Below the pieces are notes generated by a model. The model was not told the DNA's origin. It saw nothing but the letters and a program-made list of their open reading frames with translations, and ran no database searches. Positions 17,018-55,053 of a stretch of DNA of 64,000 nucleotides are shown here, piece after piece. Within the stretch, counting starts at the first letter, position 1; every line of letters begins with the position of its first letter. Origin of the DNA: Pirellulales bacterium (GTDB lineage Bacteria > Planctomycetota > Planctomycetia > Pirellulales > PALSA-1355); the NCBI GenBank assembly GCA_963733035.1, contig CAVTBU010000005.1:2368001-2432000 (forward strand), written 5' to 3'. A program made the translations under genes and the position numbers.

Positions 17018-17605
17018 CGAAGCCGCTCCTAAAGAAGTTGAGGCTGGAAGGAAGGGTTGAATTGTAGCCGAAGGGATTCGTGTGGTGTGCCACAGCGCCC
17101 AGGTGCCATGGATCAGGCGCCATGGGGTAGGTGCCACGCGCTGGCCGCGCAGCGGATGCTTCAGCTTTTACGTCGTCGCTTGCGGTCATTGACCGAATTC
17201 CGCCATTTCAGCACGGCAATGCGACTTCCACGTTGACATTGGCCATTTTCCAGCCGATACTTGTATGAGGCCCTGTTGCTCTCGAAGCCCCAAGTTCCAC
17301 TTGGGGCACGCCGTAAGGCATAGTGAGCACGGGGCTTTTTTCTTTAGGGCTTGGTTCGATTCCAGTCGCGCTGGTGGTTGCTGGGAATCAGTTTCCAGTG
17401 CCGATAGGGGTCCTCCAGCGATTAGCTCGATCGCCCTGCATCCCAGTCGATTCTCCAATGTTGAAGTTCGGGTAGAGTTGTCGAATGCGCCCCAAGATGT
17501 GCTTGTAAAGTTTCTCCTTGGCAATCGTTCGCTTGCCCCGTCGGACTTGCCCTGGCGGCTTCACCAAGTGCTTGTCATTCAATCGAAAAGCCATCGCCCC
17601 AAGCC

Positions 17606-47845: not shown

Positions 47846-49408
47846 TCATTCATGCCGCAAGGCAGCAACAGGGTCGATTTGCGCTGCGCGCCTGGCCGGA
47901 TAAACGGCGGCCAGCGTCGTAACCACGATGGCAAACGCGAGCACGGCAGTCACGAGCCACACCGGAAACACGAACAGCGAATCTTCAAGCTCGTAGGGAT
48001 ATTTTCCGGCGACCATTCCGCGGATCCAGGCCTCGCCAGGATAAGATGCTCCCCAAGCGGCAATGAGTCCCAGAGTTCCCCCAACCAGGCCGATCAGCGC
48101 GCCTTCGATCAAGAACACGCAGATAAGTTGCCCCGGAGCGGCACCGACGGCCTTCATAATGCCGATTTCCCTGGTTCGTTCCAACACACCCATCAGCATA
48201 GTGTTGGCGATTCCCAGGGCCGACACCAGCAGGGCCACGGCCGCGACGCAAGTCATGCCGCCGAAGATCAGCAGGTACGTCAACCGCTGGCGATCGATCT
48301 CGTCCAAAGGCGCGAATACAGATAGCCCCGTTTCCTTGATGCGGTCGTAAACGGCGCGCGTGTGCTCCTCATCATCGACGATCACGATCACCTGACCGAT
48401 ATCCCATTTCTCTGGTCCGAATGCATCGTCGGCCAAATTCATCGCCGTTTCGTACGGGACGATGCAATCGTTCCTGACCGCCAAGGGCTCCCACAGCCCA
48501 CGTTGGTCGTCGTCGGTCGGCATCCGCACCACGCCGACGATGGGCAATTCCGCCGCGTAAACAAATGGGGGTGCGGCCTCCTGACTGATTGCTTTGTTCA
48601 GGAGCTCGATCTCCGCCGCAGTCAAATCGAGCTGGTCGAGCACGCCGGGAAGATTCTTCGTCACCTTGTCCAGCGCCGTTTGTTCCGCGCGCGTCGCGAA
48701 ACTGTCGTCGGATTTGACCAGGTGCACGACCAACCCTGGATGGGGCGCTTGGATGCGAAACTCGATTCGAAGATACCGCCCCACGGCCCGGGCCACGTCG
48801 TCGTCGTCCGCAATGCCGAGTTGATACAACAGAAACTCGCTCACTACGACCGCCGATTCGTCCGCGGCATGGAACATTCGGCCGGCGACCAATCGCCGCG
48901 TGCAGGCCTCGTCGTCGGGGCGAGCCGTAGCGAGACCGGTCCGCTCGTCTCTACCGTCGAGGATCGCTTGACCGCCGAGTTGAAGCAGCGGCACCGCCAC
49001 GGCCACGTGAGCGAATGCCTGCAGCTCGGCCAAACGGCTTCGAGTGAGCGGCTCGACCGTATTCTGATAATTGTATCGCCGCTCGTGTTCTGCGAGGGCT
49101 TGTCGAATGCGCTGCCGTTTGGCCTCGCTCATGTCGCCCGACACAGGCATGCTGTTGACTTTCGACTCGGCCGGCCGCCACTCTGGCGAAACGACGATCG
49201 TTCGCAGCATGTCGCTACGGCGTGAGATGGCGTCAATCGTGTCCTGCACTCCCTGGCCAATCGACAAGCTGGCAGCCAGCACGAAGCTGCCGAATACGAC
49301 TCCGAGCGTAGTCAGCAACGTTCGCGACTTCTGCTGCCATAAGGCAATCAAAGGCAACGAGAGCTGGTCGCCGAGGCGGATGGACTGCCGTGGGGTCGTT
49401 GCGTTCAT
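47846..49408 (-). CDS. ABC transporter permease (MacB/FtsX family)
   Basis: RTLLTTLGV..G; large periplasmic domain; GIANTMLMGVLERTREIGIMKAVGA; PARRAAQIDPVAALRHE; ATGA overlap with the ATPase. Confidence 0.93.
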   Translation of the reverse strand: MNATTPRQSIRLGDQLSLPLIALWQQKSRTLLTTLGVVFGSFVLAASLSIGQGVQDTIDAISRRSDMLRTIVVSPEWRPAESKVNSMPVSGDMSEAKRQRIRQALAEHERRYNYQNTVEPLTRSRLAELQAFAHVAVAVPLLQLGGQAILDGRDERTGLATARPDDEACTRRLVAGRMFHAADESAVVVSEFLLYQLGIADDDDVARAVGRYLRIEFRIQAPHPGLVVHLVKSDDSFATRAEQTALDKVTKNLPGVLDQLDLTAAEIELLNKAISQEAAPPFVYAAELPIVGVVRMPTDDDQRGLWEPLAVRNDCIVPYETAMNLADDAFGPEKWDIGQVIVIVDDEEHTRAVYDRIKETGLSVFAPLDEIDRQRLTYLLIFGGMTCVAAVALLVSALGIANTMLMGVLERTREIGIMKAVGAAPGQLICVFLIEGALIGLVGGTLGLIAAWGASYPGEAWIRGMVAGKYPYELEDSLFVFPVWLVTAVLAFAIVVTTLAAVYPARRAAQIDPVAALRHE

Positions 49409-50118
49409 GCGTTCAATCGCCCGTCTTGAATCTGCAAAATGCGATCCGTGCATTGGCCGGCCAGCTCCGCGTCATGCGTAATCAGAATCAACGTGGCGTC
49501 GCGACGGCGGACATATTCGAGCACTAACCCGATCACATCAGCGGCCGTCTGACTATCGAGATTTCCCGTGGGTTCGTCGGCCAACACCACGGTTGGCCGA
49601 TTGACCAGGGCCCTGGCGATCGCTACTCGCTGACACTCGCCGCCGCTCAATTGCGAGGGGAGATGCCGCATCCGATCGGCAAGCCCGACAGCCGCCAACG
49701 ATTCGCCCGCGATCGCGCGCCGCTCAGCGGGTGGCAGGCCTGCGAAGATCATCGGCAGCTCGACATTCTCCAGCGCGGTGCGTGATGGAATGAGATTGAA
49801 CGATTGAAAGATCATGCCGACGCTGGAAGTGCGAAAGCGGGCCATCTCGCGGGCAGTCAGGCGACCGAGATCGTGGCCTGCCACCTCCAATTGCCCCGAA
49901 GTCGGATGATCGAGCCCGCCGAGCAGGTTCAACAGCGTCGATTTTCCAGAACCGGACTTACCCAGAATCGCCACCCGCTGGCCGCACTCCAGCGTTAGCG
50001 AAACTCCGCGCAACGCATGCACCGGCGCGTCGTCCGCGCCATAGACCTTCGTCACCTTGACCGCGCGAACTGCCGGAATGTCAGCTGACAACGCGGGCGA
50101 TACAGTAATCGAATGCAC
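49405..50118 (-). CDS. ABC transporter ATP-binding protein (LolD/MacB-like)
   Basis: GKSGSGKS, LSGGECQR, LADEPTGNLD, ITHD; start uncertain. Confidence 0.93.
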   Translation of the reverse strand: MHSITVSPALSADIPAVRAVKVTKVYGADDAPVHALRGVSLTLECGQRVAILGKSGSGKSTLLNLLGGLDHPTSGQLEVAGHDLGRLTAREMARFRTSSVGMIFQSFNLIPSRTALENVELPMIFAGLPPAERRAIAGESLAAVGLADRMRHLPSQLSGGECQRVAIARALVNRPTVVLADEPTGNLDSQTAADVIGLVLEYVRRRDATLILITHDAELAGQCTDRILQIQDGRLNA

Positions 50119-50219
50119 GGGCTCTATTCCGGAAAGTGAGACTGACCTGTCGCCGCGCACAGAGGCCAACTATCAATCTACCAGCCGCGTCGCGCGGCCG
50201 AAAGATAAATCGGTGTTGG

Positions 50220-51401
50220 TCAGAAACCCTGAACCAATTGCACGATCGTTTCATGGCCACGCGCGACGGCAATTTCCAGGGGCGTCTTTCCGTCGCCATC
50301 GCGGACATCTGGATTTGCACCATTCTCTAACAACAGTCGCACCACCTGCGAATGGCCACCGCGCCCCGCCTCGTGAAGCGGGCTGGTGTGACTGTCGACG
50401 GCGTTGGCCAGCTGCGGATCGTCGGCGAGCAGCCGCCGCACGATGAAGTCAAAACCCCAGCTCGCGGCAACGGCAACACCAAACGCTCGCGGCGTGCAAT
50501 GCAGCGTTGCATCGCGCGCCGTGGGATCGGCGCCGGCCTCGAGCAGTTGTCCGATCACCTCTCGCGAGCCGCCGAAATACGCCCAGTGCAACGCGGTGGC
50601 TCCCAGGTACGACCTGAATGACAAGTCCGGCTGCTTTTCGAGCAGATAGCGCACCACTTGAGCGTGGCCGTTGCGGCAGGCCATCGAGAGCGCGTCGGCC
50701 ACCTGCTCCCCCGCGGTCGCCGGTGGAGACGGGAGCCGCGATCCGTCGGCTGCAAATCGGCTGCTGCCGCTGCGCGATTCGCGAATCAACCTGCCTGCCG
50801 AATCGAAGCAAGCGTCCACTTCCTCAAGTGCGCCGAGTCCCGCGGCGCAAAACAAATCGGGCTCGGCTCCGAGCTTGACCAGCGCGCAGGCGCAATCCAG
50901 CGCGCTACAGGTGACCGCCCACGAGAGGGCCGTATGACTTGACTGTCCGAACCTGGCTTCGACGTCGGCTCCATAGGCGACGAGCACCGCGGCAATGTTC
51001 TCGTCGTTGTATCGGGCCGCCAAATGCAGCGGCGTTTGGCCATCCGCCGCCCGCGCAACTGCGAGCGCGGGTCTCTGTGCCACGAGGTTCGCGACCGTCT
51101 GCGCCTGGCCGGCGGCGATCGCAACGAGCAAGGCCGCGAAATCAGGATCGTCAGGAGCGACGACCTCGCCAGCGGCCCGGCTGCGCACGTCGAGCGGTAC
51201 CAGCGCGTCGAGTTTTTCGCGCTGTTTGTCGACGTGTACTTTGAGTTTCTGCCAGCTGGGAAACCCGAACTCGCGTGCTACCGCCAATTGCGCAGCGCTG
51301 AGACGTGCGGTGGGACGTTCGATTCGCAGCTCGTCGAGTCGCTGTTTGCAGAGCTTCTTGAGCCACTCGAGACTGACGCGTAGCGGAAGCGGGCGAGGCA
51401 T
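50220..51401 (-). CDS. Ankyrin-repeat protein with a small N-terminal helical domain
   Basis: GQTPLHLAA, TALSWAV, TALHWAY, SPLHEA, GKTPLEIA repeats; N-terminal LP...SLEWLKK...LSAAQLAVAREFGFPSW.KLK. Confidence 0.9.
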   Translation of the reverse strand: MPRPLPLRVSLEWLKKLCKQRLDELRIERPTARLSAAQLAVAREFGFPSWQKLKVHVDKQREKLDALVPLDVRSRAAGEVVAPDDPDFAALLVAIAAGQAQTVANLVAQRPALAVARAADGQTPLHLAARYNDENIAAVLVAYGADVEARFGQSSHTALSWAVTCSALDCACALVKLGAEPDLFCAAGLGALEEVDACFDSAGRLIRESRSGSSRFAADGSRLPSPPATAGEQVADALSMACRNGHAQVVRYLLEKQPDLSFRSYLGATALHWAYFGGSREVIGQLLEAGADPTARDATLHCTPRAFGVAVAASWGFDFIVRRLLADDPQLANAVDSHTSPLHEAGRGGHSQVVRLLLENGANPDVRDGDGKTPLEIAVARGHETIVQLVQGF

Positions 51402-51527
51402 CAATACACCTTCTTTCAACAGGCCCGGCGTCCGCATCTCACGGGCAGAAAGAAGGTCATCAAAACAGGAGACGTTGACGAGTGGGTTCAACCCTCCACG
51501 CGGACCGTCGGCCGCCCGTCACGGCCA
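51402..51527 (-). ncRNA. Candidate structured cis-regulatory leader RNA (pseudoknot + hairpin + anti-SD)
   Basis: Four helices identified by eye (see findings); lies between a TTGCTC-N17-TAGATT promoter-like sequence (51562-51534) and the ankyrin ATG. Confidence 0.6.
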
Positions 51528-51637
51528 CGCGATAATCTATAGCACGCGCGCAAGGCGAGCAAGGTGCAGGCGATCGGGTCTGTCGGCTTGGGATGGCTGG
51601 GTCGATTTCACGCGTGACGGCCAACAAAGTCGCCCCG

Positions 51638-52993
51638 CTAGAACGGCGCCGACGCTGGCTGCGGAACCTCGCGGGTGCTGGCGTATTGATCGCGATTGGC
51701 GTCCCACCACTTGCGCCATTTTTCGTAGGCGCTCTCGCAACTTGCCCACGGCTGAGATTGCCAGGCCACGGGTTGAATCCCCTGATTGCGACCGGTGAGC
51801 CGCTCGAGTCCCCGCGCGGCATGGAACCGCACGTCGGCGCCAGCGTCGGTCAATAGCGCGATCAGGTCGGCAATCCAGCGCGGTTGCGCCACGTCGGCCA
51901 CGATCCGCGCCGCGGTGGCTCGTTGGGGAGTGTTCGGCGTGGCGCGGGTCGACTCCAAATAAGCCAATAGCGGCGGCACGGCGCTATCGCCCAGCCGGCG
52001 GAGTTCGTCTTCGTAAAGCAGCGACAACTTCGCCGCGCCGACATTGGCCAACAACCGATCGACGCGCTCGACCAGCTCCGGATTCTTCGAGCCGCGCAGC
52101 GCCAGCACACCGTTGACCCAAGCCGTTTCCAAGAGTGCGTCGCGCGGCTGCGGATCGGCTTCAACTTTTCCACGGACAATGCGCACCTGTTTGCCGGCGC
52201 CGACCTCCACCGACTCACTGCCGGCCTCGACATTCACCGCGCCGCCGATGACGATCAGGCGTACCGCTGGCGGCTGACATTCGAGAGCCACTTCGGCTGC
52301 CTGTTTCGCCACGATCGTGCAGCCGGCCGTCGGAAATTCGAGACCGCTCGGGCCAGGTTGAATGCGAGACCAGAGACGTCCTTGTTTGACTTCGACCACT
52401 TTAGGCCTGCGGAGCGTGACTTCGGTATTGCGGTCGAGCCGCAGCGCGTTGCCGCCTGCCAGCGCGATTTCGCATTGTGCGGTCGGACCGGTGCGGATCA
52501 CCGAATCGCGCTGGATCGGTGTGGCCGGCTGACAGGTAAACGCGGGAATTTGACTGGCCGCCCGCACCTCGACCGGCGCCGACGCGACGGCCAGACGCGC
52601 AATCGGTTCGAATGCGGCTGACCGTGCCGGGACAAGGGTCTTGGATTGCCAGGGGCGAAGCAAAGCGACCGCCAGCAAAAACCCCGCGGCCGTGGCCAAC
52701 AATATCTGCCCCCAGGCCGGGCGCGCGGCCGGAGGTGCGGGCAGAGCACGCGACACGGGAATGTCACTCGAGGCGCGCACCATGGCCACGGCACGCTTGG
52801 CCATCCGCTCGGCCGCCTCGCGCCGCGGGACAAACGCGCACCGCAGTTCGACGTCGATGGTTCGCAGGCCCTCGGCCGCCTCGCGGCACTGCCAGCATGC
52901 GGCCAGATGCGCATTGAGCCCGGCTTCGGCCTCGGCGGAAAGTTCACCGTCGTTGCGGGCGTTGAGTTGGTTCAGAAATTCTTCGCAGTGCAT
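51638..52993 (-). CDS. Anti-sigma factor: zf-HC2 + TM + FecR-like + HEAT-repeat domains
   Basis: C...HLAACWQC; TM helix; LRLDRNTEV, VKQGRLW; C-terminal LIALLTD...VRFHAARGLERLTG. Confidence 0.85.
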   Translation of the reverse strand: MHCEEFLNQLNARNDGELSAEAEAGLNAHLAACWQCREAAEGLRTIDVELRCAFVPRREAAERMAKRAVAMVRASSDIPVSRALPAPPAARPAWGQILLATAAGFLLAVALLRPWQSKTLVPARSAAFEPIARLAVASAPVEVRAASQIPAFTCQPATPIQRDSVIRTGPTAQCEIALAGGNALRLDRNTEVTLRRPKVVEVKQGRLWSRIQPGPSGLEFPTAGCTIVAKQAAEVALECQPPAVRLIVIGGAVNVEAGSESVEVGAGKQVRIVRGKVEADPQPRDALLETAWVNGVLALRGSKNPELVERVDRLLANVGAAKLSLLYEDELRRLGDSAVPPLLAYLESTRATPNTPQRATAARIVADVAQPRWIADLIALLTDAGADVRFHAARGLERLTGRNQGIQPVAWQSQPWASCESAYEKWRKWWDANRDQYASTREVPQPASAPF

Positions 52994-52999
52994 GGGGTT

Positions 53000-53556
53000 T
53001 TACCTCTGCATCCCGCTAAGCCGCTCTCGGAGCATGGCCCGGGCTTTGGTCAGGCGCGCGTTGATCGTCGCGGCCGAAACGCCCAGCGCGGTTGCCAGGT
53101 CCTGGTAGGTAACGTCATCGTAATAGTACATGAGGATCACTTCGCGAAATGGTTCCGGCAGCGTGGCGACTTCCGCCAGCAGCCGTCGCTCGTCGTCGGC
53201 CTGCGCCGCCGCCTCATCGGGCGTTGGGCCGTGGCGCGCAACCCACTGGTCGGCACGTCCATCGGTGAGTGCATCGAGCGATACTTGCTGGGCCTGGCCG
53301 CATTTCAGTCGGTCGAGGCAGACGCGCGAGGCAATGCCGCACAGCCAGGGACCGAACTTGGCGGGATCTTCCAGCGTGGCAATCGAGCGCAATCCGCGCA
53401 GCAGGGCCTCTTCGCGCATTCTTCGGCGGTGTGCGACGAGCGAGCGCGGGCATGGCAGATCGCCAGCACGCGCGCCGACCAGCGGCGCACCAGTGTCTCG
53501 TACGCAGCCAGTTGGCCCCCCTGCACCAGGCAGACCAGGTCGCTGTCTGACGACAT
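53000..53556 (-). CDS. ECF RNA polymerase sigma factor, one frameshift near 53415
   Basis: MSSDSDLV...AYETLVRRW...HTAEE joins EALLRGLRSI..L.DP.KFGPWL.GIA; region 4 LPEPFREVI...TYQDLA..LGVS..TINARL.KAR. Confidence 0.88.
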
Positions 53557-53754
53557 CCGCTTTGCTCCAGGTTGTCGCGGCCCGGTTCCGTGCCGCGCTC
53601 TCTTGATTGTAATGACGAGCGACCGGCGCACGTTATTAGTCGCGCCCGAAAAAAACTCGCGGGCCGCCATATTAACTCGTGCCGCCAACGCTACGAAATG
53701 GTGGGCGACACTCGTTGCATGGCACTCGATGAATTTGACACGGAGTTAATAACC

Positions 53755-55053
53755 ATGAACCGGAAAACGCGGACGATTTGGGCCAGTGCACTTGCCGCCG
53801 GATGCCTGGTGGTCTCCGTCAGCTTGCTACCTGGTTTGCTACAGGGGGGCGACTCGCGAAATGCTCTGCCGACACAAAAGACATTGCCCTCGGATAAGCT
53901 GGTCGTACACGAATGGGGCACCTTTACCAGCTTCTCCGGCAGCGACGGCGTCAACCTCGACTTCCGCCCGCTGGTGACGAGCGATCTGCCGCCGTTCGTC
54001 GAAAGACCGTCTTCGTGGCTGGCGAAGGATCGGGTTGTTGCCCAGCAGCGGATGGAGACGCCGGTCACGTACTTCTACACGGACGTACCGCGGACGGTAA
54101 ACGTGCGCGTCGATTTTCCCCAGGGGCTGCTGACCGAATGGTATCCCAGGGCAAAGCGGTTCGACGCCAGCGGTCAGAACCCCTTGAGCCTAGGGGGGCG
54201 TGCGTTCGTGGATTGGGGTCCCGTGCGCCTGACGCCGCCCGGGCAATTTGCAGACGTGCGTGTCCGCCTTCCCAAAGGGCAGATCGCGCCGGCTTCGCTG
54301 CCGCCAGTCGACGCTGGACACCACTACGGGCGGGCCCGCGAAACGGACTCGGCGATCGTCGAGACGGTCGACTGGAATCACATCAGCCACTTCGAAAAGT
54401 TCCTGTTCTACCGGGGCGTGGGGAATTTTGAGCTGCCGATCAAGCTGGTCGCGCTGGGGGGCGATCGCTTTGAAGTGACAAACTCGGGGGCAGAGGCCAG
54501 CGGCTCGCTGTTTCTGATGCGCGTCGACGGGCGGCGCGTTCGCTTCGCAAGCATCGAGTCGGTTGGCCCGCGGTCCACCCTCGAAGTCGAGCTGCCAAGC
54601 GTCAATTCAACGGTGTATCAGCTCGCCGACGCGGTGACCGACGCACTGGTGGCCACGGGTCTTTTTGATAAGGAAGCCTTGGCAATGGTGAACACGTGGC
54701 GCGGCAGTTGGTTTGGAGAAAACGGCACGCGGCTGCTGTACCTCATATCGAGCAAGGAAACCGACAAGCTGCTGCCGCTTTCGATCGAACCTGTACCCGA
54801 CGAATGCCTGCGCGTGCTCGTGGGCCGCCTGGAAACGCTCACGCCGGACGATTGCCAGAGGCTGACGAACCAGCTGGTGGGCGTGGTCGGCAACCGACCT
54901 TCGGCCGAGGAAGTTCAAAAGCACCTGACATCGCTCGGCCGATTTGCCGAACCGGCGGTTGCGTTTATCGCCAGCCAAACTGGCGACACCGAGACGCGCA
55001 CCTCGCTGGATTCCATCCTGGCGAAGGTTCGCGGAAAAACCAATGCAAGGTAG
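53755..55053 (+). CDS. Secreted hypothetical protein with HEWGTFT motif
   Basis: GGAG RBS; signal peptide; VVHEWGTFTS, RMETPVTYFY, GLLTEWYP, EKFLFYRG.G, GLF.KEA.AMV.TW. Confidence 0.8.
   Translation: MNRKTRTIWASALAAGCLVVSVSLLPGLLQGGDSRNALPTQKTLPSDKLVVHEWGTFTSFSGSDGVNLDFRPLVTSDLPPFVERPSSWLAKDRVVAQQRMETPVTYFYTDVPRTVNVRVDFPQGLLTEWYPRAKRFDASGQNPLSLGGRAFVDWGPVRLTPPGQFADVRVRLPKGQIAPASLPPVDAGHHYGRARETDSAIVETVDWNHISHFEKFLFYRGVGNFELPIKLVALGGDRFEVTNSGAEASGSLFLMRVDGRRVRFASIESVGPRSTLEVELPSVNSTVYQLADAVTDALVATGLFDKEALAMVNTWRGSWFGENGTRLLYLISSKETDKLLPLSIEPVPDECLRVLVGRLETLTPDDCQRLTNQLVGVVGNRPSAEEVQKHLTSLGRFAEPAVAFIASQTGDTETRTSLDSILAKVRGKTNAR

Follow-up and report, generated by a model that had tools for sequence, protein, structure and literature searches.

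Results

We report that a 64,000-nucleotide (nt) stretch of DNA from a Pirellulales bacterium (hereafter the window; all coordinates are window positions) carries, at 51528-51409 on the minus strand, the 5′ leader of the mRNA of an ankyrin-repeat gene, and that this leader is a member of a widespread, uncatalogued RNA family. Covariation among copies from several phyla supports seven helices, which form two pseudoknots and a long hairpin that pairs the Shine-Dalgarno (SD) sequence of the gene. We propose that the leader is a cis-acting translational gate of the riboswitch type, with a small ligand as its most likely input. For this statement as a whole, we put the probability at about 0.55.

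A widespread RNA family that includes the window's leader

The ankyrin protein had no full-length ortholog in 60 related genomes, where it gave generic ankyrin-repeat matches (best E 1.4e-15). A blastn search with the leader returned two weak matches, with E values of 0.0014 (79% identity over 49 nt) and 0.008, and both lay directly upstream of genes with the same N-terminal motif as the ankyrin gene. Of 401 genomes of the order, 6 contained a pattern describing the shared core, and none contained the reversed control of that pattern. When one genome for each species was scanned with a second pattern, at least 121 stretches matched. Eighty of these were fetched, of which 72 were confirmed as true family copies by a covariance model; the other eight were chance matches in which the rest of the motif was absent and the model found no match.

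We used two covariance models. R1 was built from 75 sequences, the window's included, and R2 solely from 25 copies that R1 found in other genomes, the window's excluded. R2 matched the window at 51528-51409 (minus strand) with 81.7 bits (E 1.2e-17) over model positions 1-121 of 121, its sole match in the 64 kb. Since R2 was built without the window, the family membership of the window's leader is independent of its inclusion in a seed. R1 scored 84.7 bits on the window's own genome, in which it found one copy only.

By a hand count of record labels, 48 of the 72 true copies came from lineages of Acidobacteriota and, among the matches fetched, 11 from Planctomycetota. Alphaproteobacteria contributed eight (Inquilinus, Caulobacteraceae, Rhizomicrobium, and Parvularculaceae), Gemmatimonadaceae two, and Eremiobacteraceae, Steroidobacter, and an unclassified record one each. 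Some of the matches come from isolates, such as Inquilinus strains and Acidobacteria bacterium AB60. The distribution is patchy. R1 found the leader in 9 of 151 genomes sampled from the window's phylum (with four copies in one genome) and in 11 of 151 sampled from the phylum to which an acidobacterial carrier belongs. Within the window's family, 5 of 33 genomes had a copy; the three genomes of the window's genus (97-100% completeness) had none. In two genomes of the window's family (L056 and L058), an intact leader stands before a frame that closes after 35 and 103 codons, respectively, and the conserved protein motifs go on in other frames; these are either decayed genes or errors of draft assembly.

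Covariation supports seven helices

The fold could not be read from the window alone. Its 136-nt leader folded with z = −1.58, and 15 of 200 shuffled sequences folded as well; for a 261-nt segment, z was +0.14. Single-sequence folding, which cannot predict pseudoknots, is thus uninformative here, and the complementarities in this one sequence are not beyond chance. We therefore counted base pairs in 100 distinct copies aligned by R2, with the pseudoknots written in; the frequencies given below for individual helices refer to this alignment.

Standard pairs occupied 96.2% of 3488 cells, compared to 89.1% in shuffled alignments. Changes on both sides of a pair were seen in 27 of 35 pairs, against 10.6 ± 1.7 in shuffles, a value reached by 0 of 500 shuffles; sliding the partners by one to three columns left 8-12 such pairs. 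In the 25 pattern-independent copies alone, 94.0% of cells were paired (85.4% in shuffles), and 21 of 33 pairs had changed on both sides (8.9 in shuffles). Two of the helices, B and the loop pseudoknot PK1, are absent from the covariance models, and a third, a lone pair, is there merely as the outer pair of a 3-bp stem. Helix B and PK1 covary although they lie outside the models. One SD pair is U-G in 68 of the 100 copies. As G-U pairs work on the minus strand only, selection on RNA rather than DNA is indicated. The leader is therefore a conserved, structured element of the 5′ untranslated region, backed by covariation.

All seven helices can form in the window, where the leader RNA (51409..51528, minus strand, from hairpin P1 to the end of the SD) begins with P1 (51510..51526). 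In P1, GGCCG (51526-22) pairs with CGGCC (51514-10) around the 7-nt loop UGACGGG (51521-15). The hairpin was paired in 97.8% of cells, and three of its four pairs had changed on both sides; one example pair was U-A in 49 copies, C-G in 25, G-C in 13, and U-G in seven. The whole P1 loop pairs with CUCGUCA (51476..51482) to form PK1, with seven pairs in the window, one of them G-U. Three core pairs of PK1 were kept in 98, 100, and 93 copies, with pair types of G-C/A-U/G-U and A-U/G-C/G-U/C-G. Within the region spanned by PK1 lies hairpin P2 (51484..51494; GGGU at 51494-91, loop UGA, ACCC at 51487-84), which was paired in 100% of cells. Its closing pair was C-G in 45 copies, U-G in 26, U-A in 17, and A-U in 12, and its inner pairs switched from G-C to A-U in three and eight copies.

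The second pseudoknot is formed by helix B, in which GUCCGCG (51499..51505) pairs with UGCGGAC (51430..51436, strand B′) in the apical loop of the SD-masking hairpin. It was paired in 96.8% of cells, and four of its seven pairs had changed on both sides. Compensatory variants include GUCCAC/GUGGAC, GUCUGC/GCAGAC, AUCCGC/GCGGAU, and GGUCUCG/CGAGACC. The 5′ strand of helix B is bracketed by the lone pair A51508-U51498 (51498..51508), which was paired in every copy (C-G 84, A-U 13, U-A 2, G-C 1). When mutual information was calculated on our first alignment, this lone pair, which flanks CGGUCCGCG, was the top covarying column pair; further signals joined the 3′ end of the P1 loop to the bases just after P2, and the two sides of the P2 closing pair. 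A 3-bp hairpin closing CGGUCCGCG, present in the models as P1a, was rejected. Solely its outer pair covaries, and the inner G-C is broken in 4 of 12 divergent copies; it is kept here as the lone pair.

The 3′ part of the family fold is a stem in which helix C stacks on a 9-10 bp helix between the anti-SD (CCUUCUUUC) and an extended SD (GAAAGAAGG). In the window, helix C (51423..51446) joins GCCCG (51446-42) to CGGGC (51427-23) and closes the loop that holds B′. It was paired in 98.8% of cells, with four of five pairs changed on both sides and variants that include GCCUG/CAGGC, GGCCG/CGGCC, UCCCG/CGGGA, and ACCCG/CGGGU. Below it, the anti-SD ACCUUCUUUC (51448..51457) is the exact complement of the SD region GAAAGAAGGU (51408..51417), which lies 6 nt before the ATG. 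The anti-SD/SD helix, likewise paired in 98.8% of cells, had changed on both sides in seven of nine pairs; its variants include CCUCCUUUC/GAAAGGAGG, UCUUCUUUG/CAAAGGAGA, and ACUCUUUUC/GAAAGGAGU, and a one-base deletion in one strand is matched by one in the other. By itself, the hairpin 51457-51408 has a predicted energy of −19.6 kcal/mol. The leader's anti-SD CCUUCUUUC (51456-51448 in the window) resembles what we take to be the 3′ tail of 16S rRNA, CCUCCUUUC. Given this resemblance, the SD would be a 9-nt perfect partner for the ribosome, and the internal mask keeps its U-G wobble in 68 of 100 copies. In one copy (L183), the anti-SD is exactly CCUCCUUUC.

The junctions of the fold are CCGGUCCGCGG.AA, the base after P2, and the B′ loop. 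Across the family alignments linker lengths are fixed, at 1 nt following P2 and roughly 2 nt from B′ to helix C, which argues that all parts form one compact body and not two exclusive states. The consensus nested fold has an energy of −33.4 kcal/mol, and PK1 and helix B add duplexes of −8.1 and −11.1 kcal/mol; the sum is comparable to the unconstrained optimum of −48.2 kcal/mol.

The initial annotation of this DNA, made from the window's letters alone, had read a pseudoknotted leader with a different architecture. Every string that it named is present at the coordinates that it gave: the promoter-like TTGCTC-N17-TAGATT, two long complementarities, a hairpin, and the anti-SD match. The two complementarities were helix A, ACGGGCGG (51519-12) with CUGCCCGU (51448-41), and helix B, GUCCGCGU (51505-498) with AUGCGGAC (51437-30), each of eight pairs with one G-U in the window, in the order A-B-A′-B′. 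Helix B is borne out by the family, and a pseudoknotted leader stands with it; the architecture as drawn is not the conserved fold. All eight pairs of helix A are possible in 4 of 89 copies, and three to five of them in 74 of 89. A 10-bp hairpin with a bulged G (51497-51468), placed inside the pseudoknot, is the predicted fold in 6 of 89 copies, and the 4-bp P2 in 73 of 89. An outer stem closed by GGCC ends is not conserved either. Since helix A is not conserved, the suggested competition between A′ and the anti-SD also loses family support. Instead, P1, P2, PK1, the lone pair, and helix C replace helix A and the 10-bp hairpin. The halves of helix A belong to P1/PK1 and to helix C, with the A′ part GCCCG (51446-42) pairing to CGGGC (51427-23) and thereby extending the SD-masking hairpin. 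The covariation upstream of homologous genes that the annotation had proposed as a check is thus present in helix B and in the anti-SD/SD helix, the exact match that it had described; helix A and the 10-bp hairpin are not conserved. Its general conclusion, that this 5′ leader is structured and pseudoknotted and masks the site of ribosome binding, is upheld by the cross-phylum conservation, the covariation, and the lack of an Rfam match.

The leader lies between a −10-like box and a Shine-Dalgarno sequence

The window's promoter-like region (51534..51562, minus strand) consists of TTGCTC (51562-57), a 17-nt spacer, and TAGATT (51539-34); the sequence can alternatively be read as an extended −10, TGcTATAGA (51544-36). 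Either reading puts the putative transcription start near 51530-51526. In most copies, a TAnnnT hexamer, often with a preceding TG, ends 3-6 nt before model position 1. A TAnnnT falls within −2 to 12 nt of model position 1 in 96 of 102 copies, and 44 of these 96 have TTGnnn at a spacing of 16-19 nt. The start near 51527 given in the initial annotation fits this family-wide box, which is indirect evidence; a consensus promoter scan listed no sigma-70-like site in 50000-54000.

At the other end, the model stops, for every copy that was read, at the SD of the gene that follows. In the window, the leader is thus flanked by a −10-like box on one side and, on the other, by the SD and start codon of a gene that encodes one particular N-terminal domain.

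The downstream genes share a basic N-terminal domain

Every readable copy ends at the SD of a gene whose product begins M...LP.RP.L..LK.QAK.LL...L.DAQ..(I/L)AREYGF.SW.KLK.HV. The sequences that follow this domain differ. Among 24 full or long products behind model-found copies, 21 contained ankyrin repeats, one contained leucine-rich repeats (LRR), one a T2SSF/T2SSE ATPase, and one nothing recognized; one WD40 protein was found among the pattern matches. The linkage between RNA and domain is strict. Five genomes together contained 10 strong matches to the domain, and each of these had the leader directly upstream, including four of four in one genome. No leader was detected before three weaker, more distant domain matches in the same five genomes.

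The first 75 residues are basic, with a median isoelectric point (pI) of 9.8, a pI above 9 in 48 of 61 proteins, and a median net charge of +4. The domains are 26-70% identical to that of the window. An AlphaFold model of the domain is a helical bundle with a predicted local distance difference test score (pLDDT) of 75.7. The domain matched no Pfam or NCBIfam family above cut-off, with a sub-threshold likeness to the first part of Glyoxalase_8 (PF20066; best E 0.00042). A sequence search of the PDB with the domain returned nothing at E ≤ 0.001 (best E 0.036), Foldseek with the model found no fold match in the PDB (best E 0.55), and a protein atlas search gave unnamed clusters only, with scores up to 0.85.

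Two of the products are of unusual build. An Inquilinus protein behind a leader (L061/L196) has two tandem copies of the N-terminal domain in one 518-aa (amino acid) frame. A leader copy of low GC content (0.48; L185) stands before a gene whose product joins the domain to T2SSF and T2SSE, a type II/IV secretion ATPase (T2SSE E 9.7e-102).

We also asked what follows the leader's gene. A heuristic based on the longest open reading frame (ORF) recovered this gene at nine loci, and at seven of them the next, unverified ORF was convergent, on the opposite strand; the nine loci shared no neighbor or conserved operon partner. The gene behind the leader is therefore probably monocistronic in most genomes.

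Comparison with catalogued RNAs and known regulators

We searched the 4227 models of Rfam release 15, taking the gathering threshold as the criterion. Within 51300-51700, the only match at E up to 10 was MIR531 (E 6; 15.2 bits, threshold 70), consistent with the initial annotation, which could match the leader to no named riboswitch class. For 20 of the scanned loci, of which 16 were true copies, the only match at E up to 1 was BSR0441 (22.1 bits, threshold 291). Full-text searches of the literature turned up no description of the motif, though a listing confined to the supplements of PMC5737381 or PMC11109978 may exist; the main text of PMC5737381 mentions neither ankyrin nor Acidobacteria nor Planctomycetes, and the supplement of PMC8632094 has no occurrence of the motif.

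We regard the leader as a new family within a known kind of system: its workings would resemble those of riboswitches that sequester the SD in a pseudoknot and of pseudoknotted autogenous operators, and it belongs to neither. What is unusual is the fusion of a double pseudoknot to a very stable SD hairpin, and the coupling to a protein domain instead of a pathway. SAM-II (RF00521), preQ1-II (RF01054), and preQ1-III are riboswitches in which a pseudoknot sequesters the SD. Like them, the leader is a cis-acting 5′ element in which a hairpin loop pairs with a distant strand and the ribosome-binding site lies in a helix within or stacked on the sensor fold; its output would likewise be translational. 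Unlike them, it matches no Rfam 15 model, is about twice as long, and has two separate pseudoknots plus a covarying lone pair. At 9-10 bp plus 5 bp, its SD helix is long, and it is predicted to be stable without ligand; its genes encode repeat proteins rather than enzymes or transporters.

Autogenous operators offer a second comparison. The leaders of Escherichia coli rpsO (S15) and rplT (L20) and the phage T4 gene 32 operator are also pseudoknotted and overlap the ribosome-binding site, and they too are found only before a gene family that could encode the binder, with a one-to-one link between RNA and domain. Such operators are known from narrow lineages and mimic the protein's normal RNA target; in contrast, the core of our leader is near-identical in several phyla, and its partner domain has no known RNA-binding fold. 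With the RNA thermometers ROSE and fourU, the leader shares a pyrimidine-rich anti-SD that pairs with the SD and has a wobble pair and a bulge close by. It differs from them in its large, conserved, pseudoknotted upstream domain and in a hairpin whose stability puts it far above physiological melting.

The pnuC motif, named after a single downstream gene, was reportedly an orphan riboswitch candidate before its assignment to NAD+ (PMC7749635). It too was a conserved structured leader found comparatively and associated almost exclusively with one gene family, which left its ligand to be guessed from the gene. The genes behind our leader, with ankyrin, LRR, or WD40 repeats and an uncharacterized N-terminal domain, give no such ligand hypothesis.

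The ankyrin gene and its neighbors

The gene behind the leader (50220..51401, minus strand, ATG at 51401) encodes a 393-aa protein with a basic, helical N-terminal domain of about 75 aa (LP..SLEWLKK...AQLAVAREFGFPSW) followed by ankyrin repeats. The product exceeds the Pfam gathering cut-offs for Ank_2 (136.2 bits against 27.3; E 5.8e-40) and Ank (123.1 bits against 21.1). It is not among the Legionella Ank effectors of NCBIfam, all of whose models scored far under cut-off (84.5 against 600, and lower). In PADLOC, the repeats, and only these, match two models, the candidate defense model PDC-M72A (E 4.6e-27) and "Ankyrin" (E 6.1e-13), which probably reflects generic repeat similarity.

Two other starts are available to the gene. 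An AUG at 51436, inside strand B′, is in frame 12 codons upstream (MRTPGLLKEGVL-M...), and a TTG at 51491 (minus strand) opens a 423-aa frame. Neither is conserved in the family, and ATG 51401 is favored because of its spacing from the SD. A short leader peptide starting from an AUG in the B′ region, which some copies have, was considered and rejected: by eye, without a count, the bases before GCGGAC vary freely (UGU, CAU, AAC, CGA, and others).

The leader lies in the minus-strand intergenic space between ATG 51401 and the stop of a FecR/zf-HC2 anti-sigma gene (51638-52993). Together with a gene for an extracytoplasmic function (ECF) sigma factor (53000-53419), this gene occupies 51638-53419, directly upstream on the same strand. 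The anti-sigma protein (451 aa) has zf-HC2, FecR, and HEAT_2 domains; the sigma factor is 139 aa as listed, and its region 2 is truncated at that start. In two relatives, orthologs of the anti-sigma protein (61% and 54% identity) are followed by different, unrelated genes. On the other side, in the region 47846-50169 (minus strand), an ATP-binding cassette (ABC) ATPase (ABC_tran E 2.5e-35) begins 51 nt after the ankyrin gene stop, and a 535-aa membrane-protein frame on the same strand overlaps its end by 49 nt. Here, the two frames may be co-transcribed with the ankyrin gene, but the family as a whole does not share this arrangement. The sole Rfam family in the 64-kb window is RF03075, DUF3800-VIII RNA, at 17267-17338 on the plus strand (52.5 bits, gathering threshold 40.2; E 6.5e-07).

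Discussion

We propose the following model for how the leader might act. The transcript would begin a few bases after the −10 box and fold into one compact unit. In this unit, the P1 loop would pair with the bases just after P2 to form PK1, and helix B would form the second pseudoknot by reaching into the apical loop of the long 3′ hairpin. The folded leader would pair the whole extended SD and could in this way gate translation initiation in cis. The 5′ double-pseudoknot domain, with its near-invariant junction bases, would be the sensor, and the most likely input would be a small molecule or ion, making the leader a riboswitch. We rank a small-ligand riboswitch first because of the size of the element, its invariance across phyla, and its pseudoknotted architecture, and the anti-SD/SD helix provides the expression platform over the SD that is generic to riboswitches. 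The parts of this model differ in strength: the leader very probably has a cis-regulatory function, and SD masking is its probable output, but a small-molecule input falls just short of an even bet.

Several points weigh against this model. The SD hairpin is very stable by itself (−19.6 kcal/mol). We found no alternative covarying helix that would free the SD, the best unlisted stack having four compensated cells, so that any switching mechanism is hypothetical. The leader is restricted to one gene family without known function; metabolite riboswitches seldom show such a restriction, and it offers no hint of a ligand. The covariation counts also have their limits. The pattern with which 75 of the 100 copies were gathered fixed the 5′ strand of helix B, the anti-SD, and GCCC, so that variation there rests mainly on the other 25. 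In addition, the alignments follow the model's nested helices and so favor them, and relatedness among the sequences inflates shuffle tests.

One candidate for an alternative state was GGAAAGGG, which spans a junction and the 5′ strand of P2 and could, as an upstream SD mimic, serve as an anti-anti-SD. Although 85-99% of cells can pair, only two are compensated, and the pairing fails in copies with a changed anti-SD (L199, L202, and L204). It is neither supported nor excluded by the alignment.

The stability of the hairpin would be easier to explain if the encoded protein, and no small ligand, were the input. The basic, helical N-terminal domain might bind its own leader and repress or trap initiation, in the manner of ribosomal-protein and threonyl-tRNA-synthetase operators, and a repressor or an entrapment mechanism fits a very stable SD hairpin better than does a ligand-stabilized OFF switch. 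The domain is also the sole thing common to the downstream genes, whose C-terminal parts differ; it is basic (median pI 9.8); and it is coupled to the leader in 10 of 10 cases, with the three copies lacking a detected leader being the weaker ones. Nonetheless, we rank autogenous control, the main rival of the riboswitch reading, second and consider it somewhat unlikely. RNA binding by the domain is a conjecture from its sequence, as Pfam, PDB sequence, and Foldseek searches gave no match to a nucleic-acid-binding fold, and near-identical RNA cores across phyla, next to protein domains that are 26-70% identical, are more typical of small-ligand aptamers. It is also improbable that the leader senses nothing and instead keeps translation constantly low, stabilizes the 5′ end of the mRNA, or acts as a temperature- or helicase-dependent gate. 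A hairpin that is stable alone and the lack of a conserved competing helix are what such a leader might show; P1 sits at the likely first bases of the transcript, a position that protects mRNAs, and the U-G wobble makes the anti-SD helix slightly weaker in 68 of 100 copies, as in RNA thermometers. However, neither a simple SD mask nor a 5′ cap hairpin would require two pseudoknots, a lone pair that covaries, and some 70 nt of near-invariant sequence, all kept across phyla. As for a thermometer, the hairpin is not marginal but far more stable than in known examples, and the 70 nt upstream of it are conserved and covarying.

The remaining alternatives concern what is conserved. That the leader folds exactly as first annotated, with A-B-A′-B′ around the 10-bp hairpin and A′ competing with the anti-SD for one base, is very unlikely. 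All these pairings exist in the window, with −13.5 kcal/mol for the helix A duplex and −9.3 kcal/mol for the hairpin alone, which is contained in the folds of both the full leader and the segment concerned. The window is also among the four copies that can form helix A in full, so that helix A could be a lineage-specific alternative conformer. Yet helix A is limited to three to five pairs in most copies, the hairpin is predicted in six only, and both clash with the covarying P1, PK1, P2, and helix C. Helix A and the 10-bp hairpin may thus be local alternative conformers in the window's lineage, and are not what selection keeps. Conservation at the level of DNA, as an operator or promoter element, or a recent horizontal spread of a gene cassette without selection on the leader, is least probable of all. 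The patchy occurrence (5 of 33 genomes in the family, 0 of 3 in the genus) and the loss of synteny around the leader fit transfer, and the element abuts the promoter. Selection on DNA sequence would not, however, produce compensatory double changes in all seven helices or strand-specific G-U pairs. Moreover, where protein similarity is confined to a short N-terminal stretch (59% identity in the one case listed), stretches of the leader core are 79-85% identical; with N-terminal domains at 26-70%, the leader is more conserved than the adjoining coding sequence.

A riboswitch-type leader remains the reading that we prefer, and common, strongly conserved leaders of this type that are still uncatalogued are now rare finds. 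The one described here shows hallmarks of validated classes: a core of about 120 nt that hardly varies, two pseudoknots in which compensatory changes are abundant, a constant placement between promoter and ribosome-binding site, and presence in many species of several phyla. The genes that it would control are not metabolic. They encode ankyrin, LRR, and WD40 repeat proteins with one uncharacterized basic N-terminal domain, matched one-to-one with the RNA. Tentatively, and at less than even odds, we suggest that the leader represents a new ligand-sensing riboswitch class with a double-pseudoknot aptamer, present in five or six bacterial phyla at least, that controls repeat-scaffold proteins (ankyrin, LRR, and WD40). 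It would be just as unusual if, alternatively, the leader RNA were recognized by the three-helix N-terminal domain as a new RNA-binding module.

Identifying the input could bring to light a new aptamer fold or, alternatively, a new RNA-binding domain, and the covariance models and 100-sequence alignment make the questions of ligand and protein binding testable at the bench. It would also provide a large protein family, the "hypothetical" repeat proteins in Acidobacteriota and Planctomycetota, with a function; these bacteria are abundant in soil and water and genetically poorly studied. If the leader is indeed a riboswitch class, it would point to a new small-molecule signal and pathway in soil Acidobacteriota and Planctomycetota.

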